Below are positions 16,958 to 17,015 of a stretch of DNA of 64,000 nt, one piece after another. The translations under genes and the position numbers were made by a program. Location: the sequence record MN850590.1. One strand, given 5' to 3'. The DNA is from Escherichia phage moha. Position 1 is the first letter of the stretch, and each line of letters begins with the position of its first letter. The notes below the pieces were generated by a model. It was not told the origin of the DNA. It did no database searches and was given only the letters and a program-made list of their open reading frames with translations.

Positions 16958-16987
16958 AGTTTACTTCTCCTCTAGTTGTGTTACTAT
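16958..16987 (+). promoter_or_regulatory. early promoter with 12-bp SD-sequestering inverted repeat
   Basis: -35 GTTTAC / 18 bp / -10 TACTAT; CTCCTCTAGTTG (16967) pairs CAACTAGAGGAG (16996), the SD of regB. Confidence 0.6.
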
Positions 16988-17015
16988 AGACCTGTCAACT
17001 AGAGGAGAAATCAAA

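Follow-up and report, generated by a model that had tools for sequence, protein, structure and literature searches.

The window, by which we mean the whole stretch of 64,000 nucleotides analysed here, is a segment of a T4-like phage genome, either that of phage RB69 or that of a near-identical Mosigvirus. Sequence comparison of the DNA around regB gave 99% identity to Mosigvirus isolates and ~76% identity to T4. The sense strand of the early genes is the + strand of the window, and tblastn against T4, combined with the T4 annotation, identified the neighbouring genes as ipI, e.6, e, denV, ipIII, regB and rI.1, with nrdC.x, 49, 55.x, imm and sp as further neighbours. A search of the whole window against Rfam at the gathering score returned two tRNAs only, with no match to a cis-regulatory family. 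The gene of primary interest had been called regB in a first-pass annotation made from the letters alone, and this identification is borne out by the 100% amino acid identity of its product to RB69 RegB. The ORF that precedes regB varies among close relatives, in which the nucleotide matches are broken into two pieces. The features at this locus, together with the two tRNA genes, are as follows.

4117-4188 and 4195-4268: two tRNA genes, the sole Rfam matches in the window.
16952-16954, + strand: stop codon TAA of the preceding ORF (16745-16954), 10 nt 5' of the 5' arm.
16959-16964, + strand: -35 element GTTTAC of the regB early promoter, fitting the T4/PST early consensus TTTACW-N17-TAYWAT (PMC4122927).
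16965-16978, + strand: 5' arm (anti-SD) TTCTCCTCTAGTTG, which fills the -35/-10 spacer and would be present only in RNA arriving from upstream.
16979-16987, + strand: extended -10, TGt-TACTAT, in the hairpin loop.
16996-17009, + strand: 3' arm CAACTAGAGGAGAA, which holds the regB SD GAGGAG (17002-17007) and a GGAG RegB-type cleavage motif.
17016-17474, + strand: regB coding sequence, 152 aa, matching PHROG 1323 (endoribonuclease).

The bases agacctgt lie between the extended -10 and the 3' arm, and atcaaa joins the 3' arm to the ATG at 17016. Within the arms, CTCCTCTAGTTG (16967-16978) is perfectly complementary to CAACTAGAGGAG (16996-17007), so that the perfect pairing claimed by the first-pass annotation, with GAGGAG as the SD, stands. 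The exactly complementary 12-nt arms are part of a longer perfect helix of 14 bp (16965-16978 with 16996-17009), and a repeat search returned regB arms of 19 nt at 89%. The same annotation had placed the upstream arm 5' of the promoter -10; this is also correct, as the 5' arm occupies the spacer between the -35 and -10 elements of a T4-type early promoter. A generic sigma-70 scan did not call the regB promoter (8/12 matches), and promoters were found instead with the T4-type consensus GTTTAC-N-TGn-TAYWAT. From the spacing, transcription would be expected to start at about 16994, between the arms and two bases before the 3' arm. A terminator scan of the ~1.9 kb of contiguous ORFs ahead of regB, including the interval from the ORF at 16745-16954 to regB, gave no convincing hit on the + strand.

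Three further occurrences of this design had been proposed, near 59496/59526, 13501/13537 and 20201/20236. Pairing was found at the first two, with the helices longer than had been stated (14 bp perfect rather than 13, and 10 bp perfect rather than 8, respectively). The third had been described as a weaker form and is one, with 8 bp of perfect pairing and a marginal folding score (z -1.05). Three additional members came to light in a scan of promoter-proximal gene starts. Members are named below by the approximate position of their promoter.

59495-59539, + strand: second cassette (59490), arms 59495-59508 and 59526-59539, 14 bp perfect; -10 TATTAT at 59512-59517; ATG at 59544.
13499-13546, + strand: denV cassette, arms TTCCTCCAAG (13499-13508) and CTTGGAGGAA (13537-13546), 10 bp perfect; -10 TACTAT at 13517-13522; ATG at 13550.
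20203-20248, + strand: weak member (20198), arms TTCTCCTC (20203-20210) and GAGGAGAA (20241-20248), 8 bp perfect; ATG at 20253, opening a 59-aa ORF.
5556-5600, + strand: additional member (5551), arms TTCTTCTAAGG (5556-5566) and CCATAGAGGAA (5590-5600), with one G.U and one mismatch; ATG at 5607.
36098-36141, + strand: additional member (36092) before the gene 55.6 homologue, arms 36098-36109 and 36127-36141, forming the helices TCCTC/GAGGA and CGATAGAT/ATCTACCG; ATG at 36149.
59064-59107, + strand: additional member (59056), arms TTCCTCTAGG (59064-59073) and CCAAGAGGAA (59098-59107); ATG at 59114.
5480-5520, 20150-20186 and 59030-59052: intrinsic terminators upstream of members 5551, 20198 and 59056, with GC-rich stems and a T-run after them; two have a UUCG-type loop.

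The ORF that begins at 59544 encodes 105 aa, is conserved and belongs to PHROG 2110. Its cassette is nearly identical to that of regB, and the TCT/AGA of one versus the AGT/ACT of the other amounts to two double compensatory changes. Across the members, the promoter is of the form GTTTAC-N16/17-TGn-TAYWAT and the +1 predicted from the sequence falls 0-3 nt before the 3' arm. The ORFs that precede the regB, 59490 and denV helices end 6-10 nt 5' of the helix, and the late-expressed gene e lies directly upstream of denV in the window. A canonical intrinsic terminator stands directly upstream of 3/7 members (5551, 20198 and 59056), where terminator, promoter and hairpin together form composite cassettes. 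An intrinsic terminator was also considered as a reading of the SD-occluding hairpins themselves and appears unlikely, as the strong members are not followed by a U-run.

Hairpins of other kinds were observed in the window. At about ten other early promoters, a dyad spans the -10 and stops short of the SD:

2615-2670, 9184-9235, 10479-10530, 20650-20700 and 61008-61060; also 6324, 2260, 6609, 25020 and 36795: -10-spanning dyads.

Five of these dyads are near-identical copies of TGATAGGACTA-TGTTATAG-TAGTCCTATCA, with 10-13 bp. In these dyads too the 5' arm lies within the spacer, and the hairpins would accordingly form only in read-through RNA; from their sequence they look like the stem-loops of PeSLs; T4 has equivalents at dmd, mobD.2, ipI, trna.4 and 30.7. 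At 7250-7322, 38410-38481 and 25005-25075 (nrdC.8) the designs are nested: the partner of the SD lies 5' of an inner hairpin, which is surrounded by the outer helix. At 7322 this enclosed hairpin is a terminator; at 38481 and 25020 it is a dyad spanning the -10. A further hairpin, the perfect palindrome AGGCCTAAGTATAGGCCT, follows the ipIII-like gene at 14876-14893; it is terminator-like on both strands and is followed by a TTTAC motif.

Folding of the predicted transcripts separated the two kinds of RNA. The minimum free energy of the read-through RNA was -23.2 kcal/mol for regB (z -3.83), -21.2 kcal/mol for 59490 (z -5.12) and -17.8 kcal/mol for denV (z -3.03); the value at 20203, -15.3 kcal/mol with z -1.05, is not significant alone. 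RNA from the predicted start sites folded at 0 to -2.5 kcal/mol, with z-scores of +0.4 to +2.1, and is no more structured than its shuffles. We then took all T4-type early promoters on the + strand that precede an SD, start codon and ORF (n=27) and computed for each, by partition function, how probable it is that its SD is paired with the spacer. The resulting values were bimodal, with seven starts at 0.89 or above (0.89-1.0) and the other 20 at 0.34 or below. The high scorers comprised the regB, 59490, denV and 20198 sites and the members at 5551, 36092 and 59056, so that the design is far commoner than the four sites originally noticed; that these cassettes are PeSLs had likewise been missed. 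For the same seven members, the SD in RNA from the predicted start site was paired with a probability of 0.09-0.58. In the assessment of the first-pass proposal, the corresponding values were 0.99-1.0 for RNA with the spacer and 0.09-0.37 for RNA from the predicted start. The proposal that the SD would be sequestered on read-through RNA and open on locally started RNA thus agrees with the computed folds, and as a mechanism predicted from sequence it is supported computationally. The pipeline also recovered two hairpins that serve as internal positive controls, each with P(SD paired)=1.0. The first is that of gene e (ATG 12725), at 12698-12705/12715-12723 with arms ATACCTCC and GGGAGGTAT; the second is that of gene 49 (ATG 31468), in which ACCCTTA (31438-31444) pairs with TAAGGGT (31456-31462) and TATAAATA lies immediately 5' (31431-31438). 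As a separate observation, the late-promoter motif TATAAATA also lies inside a predicted hairpin at 22906-22946 that pairs the SD of the ORF at 22946 (P=1.0), which may be a further member of the e/soc type.

Pairing of this strength exceeds what spacer composition would provide, as spacer shuffling gave an expectation of 0.95 high scorers compared with the 7/27 observed (P about 3e-6 to 3e-5). A cruder baseline tempers this result: the SD was paired with upstream sequence at 0.8 or above in 9/24 promoter-proximal starts and in 11/72 other + strand starts, the latter including the known e and 49 hairpins, which makes the promoter enrichment only ~3-fold (Fisher P=0.024). Sequestration of the SD is therefore not rare in this genome, and its association with promoters is real but only about three-fold. 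When the same pipeline was applied to the early regions of T4 (AF158101), 10/32 promoter-proximal starts were flagged, namely mrh.2, motB.2, e.8, denV, regB, mobD.5, nrdC.8, ndd.4, alc and alt.-3, with 30.8 just under the threshold. The T4 regB arms, TTTTCCTCTTGACTG and CAGTTAAGAGGAGAA, form 15 pairs, two of them G.U.

We also examined whether the pairing is maintained among orthologues. Upstream regions of regB were gathered from IMG/VR and from GenBank phages, and an SD-containing helix of 11-15 bp was present in Mosigvirus, Tequatrovirus, Gelderlandvirus, Kanagawavirus and Dhakavirus. The helix is weak in Karamvirus and Jiaodavirus, and among the upstream regions compared it is absent from Gaprivervirus, Marfavirus, Tegunavirus, Krischvirus and the Aeromonas and Pseudomonas relatives. 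Alignment of ten regB leaders with MAFFT and RNAalifold misaligned the arms and recovered the SD core alone. Covariation was scored with a pair table whose register was anchored on the SD, with slid registers as controls, at six pairs just beyond the invariant core. Outside the SD core, 54/60 cells were paired in the true register versus 13-29/60 in the slid registers, and six positions show at least two Watson-Crick pair types across five genera. Among the 17 class cassettes of the window and T4, cognate arms scored 9.44 versus 6.51 for non-cognate arms (permutation P=5e-5); the helices therefore exceed a generic CTCC/GGAG match. Helix scores were used for this comparison because a swap test on pairing probability found that any class spacer occludes most class SDs, and pairing probability consequently cannot show cognate specificity. 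At non-Watson-Crick positions inside the helices, G.U exceeded A.C by 16:3 (P=0.004, with equal penalties of -1.0), an excess that favours selection on the sense RNA and not on DNA. The ratio was 14:3 with a penalty of -1.5 and 25:15 (P=0.15) with a penalty of -0.5, at which the helices over-extend.

The denV orthologues provide the strongest case that the pairing is selected, as judged by comparison of their leaders. The SD was paired with upstream sequence at 0.8 or above in 27/32 distinct leaders, through at least 10 unrelated helix sequences. The anti-SD may be in the spacer or in the -10/discriminator, as in TATGATGTCTTCC...GGAGGACATC, and is always 5' of the predicted start. SD and anti-SD change together, from GGAGGAA/TTCCTCC in RB69 to GGAGA/TCTCC in T4. 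Among the denV leaders compared, SD pairing was absent from the jumbo relatives. Orthologues of the ORF at 59544 present a different picture, with the full 14 bp in the RB69 type and, in most others, no more than a TCTCC/GGAGA core of 5-6 bp; so short a helix may not suffice to block translation, and shared ancestry of the cassettes could account for it. The regB promoter and leader of the Dhakavirus vB_EcoM_FB have nearly the same sequence as those of T4 denV (T4 65355-65415), which fits a PeSL-type shuffling of regulatory cassettes between genes. Because cassettes are apparently shuffled in this way, some of the covariation may represent cassette replacement and not stepwise compensation. 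Taken together, the compensatory changes, the cognate fit and the diversity of the denV helices support the view that the pairing is under selection, to the extent that sequence comparison can indicate it.

We consider it probable that these cassettes are promoter-locked translation initiation regions. Each would consist of a strong T4-type early (sigma-70) promoter whose spacer holds the anti-SD and a few leader-matching bases. Polymerase that binds the local promoter would start ~7 nt past the -10, which is 3' of the anti-SD arm, so the resulting leader of ~22 nt should be unstructured and its SD open. RNA from any upstream promoter, whether early, middle or late, would carry both arms and could fold into a hairpin of 10-15 bp (-15 to -23 kcal/mol), with the -10 region as its loop and the SD in its 3' arm. 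On such long RNA the cistron would be unable to recruit a 30S subunit alone, and the GGAG would also be hidden from RegB. Protein output would then track the gene's own promoter only, insulated from the many tandem promoters upstream, and synthesis would end once the early promoters shut off, with the read-through RNA remaining silent. This reading supposes that transcription starts where the spacing predicts, that read-through RNA is ample, that translation from it is blocked in vivo and that the block is the selected function.

Several considerations bear on how complete such a block might be. According to the relationship reportedly established by de Smit and van Duin, a helix of 10-15 bp over the SD should abolish independent 30S binding. 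At T4 gene e, a 100-fold effect of SD occlusion has been documented (PMC3014915). With the preceding ORFs stopping 6-10 nt before the helices, a terminating ribosome should melt no more than the outer pairs, although it could do so transiently and permit some coupled initiation. As for the supply of read-through RNA, middle promoters have been mapped in T4 upstream of both genes, Pvs.7 (64382) ahead of regB (62740) and PipIII (66724) ahead of denV (65355) (PMC2988021). At 5551, 20198 and 59056 the upstream terminator may already keep read-through low, and the hairpin may be partly redundant there.

An alternative is that the hairpins are PeSL-type stem-loops with a transcriptional or RNA-metabolic job, either attenuating or pausing upstream transcription or serving as protective 3' or 5' hairpins after processing, and that complementarity to the SD is secondary to placement of the stem. 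The stems of PeSLs in RB49 and phi1 are drawn between the -35 and -10 or overlapping the -10, and one of these stem-loops lowers downstream lacZ like a strong terminator (PMC2839356). In the window, the -10-spanning dyads without SD contact at about ten other early promoters indicate that promoter-spanning hairpins exist independently of SD occlusion. However, no U-run follows any strong member on either strand, the regB, denV and 59490 helices were passed over by the terminator scan, and loops of 17-28 nt are poor for intrinsic termination. Moreover, the 3' arm always covers the SD in this subclass, and at denV the anti-SD changes along with the SD. For these reasons we regard this explanation as unlikely.

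Less probable still, in our judgement, is that the helix mainly hides GGAG from RegB or other endonucleases and so protects polycistronic RNA from cleavage and decay. RegB needs a single-stranded GGAG followed by an A-rich tract and is inhibited by secondary structure (PMC1702504), and in T4 and its relatives, RB69 among them, the GGAG of the regB SD is known to be cleaved by RegB (PMC3014915). GGAG is present at 4/4 sites of the first-pass annotation, and the 59490 sequence (GGAGAACAAAA) matches the RegB target consensus GGAGRAYARAA (PMC1702504) exactly. At SDs of the GGAG type, the helix would indeed also shield the site from RegB. However, the SDs at 5551, 36092 and 59056 (GAGGAA) and at T4 alc (GAGGAC) are poor substrates or non-substrates, and the GGAG of T4 denV is RegB-resistant for sequence reasons. 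As several members have SDs other than GGAG, shielding from RegB cannot be the general purpose of the design. Occlusion of the SD blocks translation regardless, which makes shielding an additional effect and not an alternative to promoter-locked initiation.

A DNA-level or historical feature without RNA function (promoter-spacer preferences, recombination sites, remnants of cassette duplication, a cruciform or chance) appears highly improbable: although the class spacers share a GTTTAC(T/A)TCTCC start and are exchanged between genes, and the antisense strand of the perfectly complementary regB helix folds equally well, G.U exceeds A.C, double changes are compensatory, cognate arms fit specifically, spacer shuffles exclude chance, and the anti-SD, whether next to the -35, next to the TGn or in the discriminator, always pairs with the SD. 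A cruciform in particular is unlikely with loops of 17-28 nt.

We put forward more tentatively, as a possibility, that spacer-embedded anti-SD arms constitute a general and unrecognised layer of early control in T4-like phages, in which a quarter to a third of the cassettes act as self-contained translational insulators that travel with their ORF. Were this so, translation of such genes would be confined to transcripts of their own promoters, which could explain part of the abrupt fall in early-protein synthesis at promoter shut-off despite the persistence of read-through RNA, and why nucleases like RegB, DenV and Alc are not produced in excess from middle and late read-through RNA. If the early-promoter version works as predicted, it would also offer dense tandem promoters a simple way to avoid cumulative downstream over-expression, give a functional reading to a large share of PeSL cassettes and place a second control layer on regB beside RegB self-cleavage. 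T4 and RB69 serve as reference systems in the study of gene regulation, and in the T4 reviews examined the cases of SD occlusion are limited to e, soc, 49 and the homing-endonuclease genes, all with late promoters in the hairpin. As a compact, portable part of natural origin, a promoter that brings its own translational insulation could in addition serve the design of synthetic operons.

Finally, we compared the cassettes with known systems. PeSLs (Arbiol 2010; Comeau 2014) are the same intergenic cassettes, each with an AT-rich stretch, an early promoter, a stem-loop, an SD and an ATG, and are repeated through hyperplastic early regions and exchanged between genes. Those of T4 and PST use TTTACW-N17-TAYWAT (PMC4122927). 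On the + strand of the window, 27 such cassettes occur in a PeSL-like layout, with the stem-loop within or adjoining the promoter at the SD-occluding ones. In the texts examined, the two PeSL papers interpret the stem-loops as terminators or attenuators and as recombination sites and do not mention pairing with the SD (PMC2839356, PMC4122927); the word 'translation' is absent from Arbiol 2010 (PMC2839356). The SD-occluding cassettes differ from PeSLs so interpreted in that no U-tract follows the stem and the SD itself forms the 3' arm. A full-text literature search returned, among the papers covered, no description of an SD paired with an early-promoter spacer.

Autoregulation by RegB uses the same regB nucleotides and acts on single-stranded GGAG, as in transcripts started at the local promoter. 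Through the hairpin, read-through RNA would be silenced and also shielded from RegB, a second layer of which the T4 reviews examined make no mention for regB. Insertion sequences provide a more distant parallel. Fold-back inhibition in IS10 was reportedly described by Davis, Simons and Kleckner in 1985 and by Kleckner in 1990. For IS200, an RBS-occluding stem-loop is cited in PMC3196728. As in the cassettes, the extra 5' sequence of transcripts from outside these elements pairs with the RBS, and their own promoter is internal. However, IS10 and IS200 apply this to transposase genes, one per element, whereas the cassettes are repeated in ordinary phage early genes and keep the arm in the promoter spacer. 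The likeness is one of mechanism only, as the analogy would have it; the cassettes have neither transposase nor terminal inverted repeats and are not members of these families.

The closest relatives are the T4 genes e, soc, 49 and I-TevI, in which the SD is paired with the 5' arm in long transcripts and left open in shorter ones made from a promoter at or within the hairpin (PMC3014915). The early cassettes resemble them in holding the SD in a helix on upstream-started RNA and in possessing a promoter whose transcripts, as predicted here, lack the 5' arm. In e, soc, 49 and I-TevI, the internal promoter is late (gp55, TATAAATA), the gene is silent early and translated late, and the loops are ~9-11 nt. 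The early cassettes differ from e and soc in having an early sigma-70 promoter, a 5' arm that is the spacer and a loop of 17-28 nt that is the -10 region; their predicted timing is reversed, and they involve a quarter to a third of early promoters and not a handful of genes. The parallel with e and soc drawn in the first-pass annotation is therefore apt as to mechanism and mistaken as to timing, the promoter inside the hairpin being early and not late. TATAAATA is absent at all seven sites, its four matches in the window being elsewhere, and without a late promoter the cassettes are not members of the e/soc/49 set; they are an early-promoter variant of it. The design is conserved and common, and its logic is already familiar from the known systems of SD occlusion.
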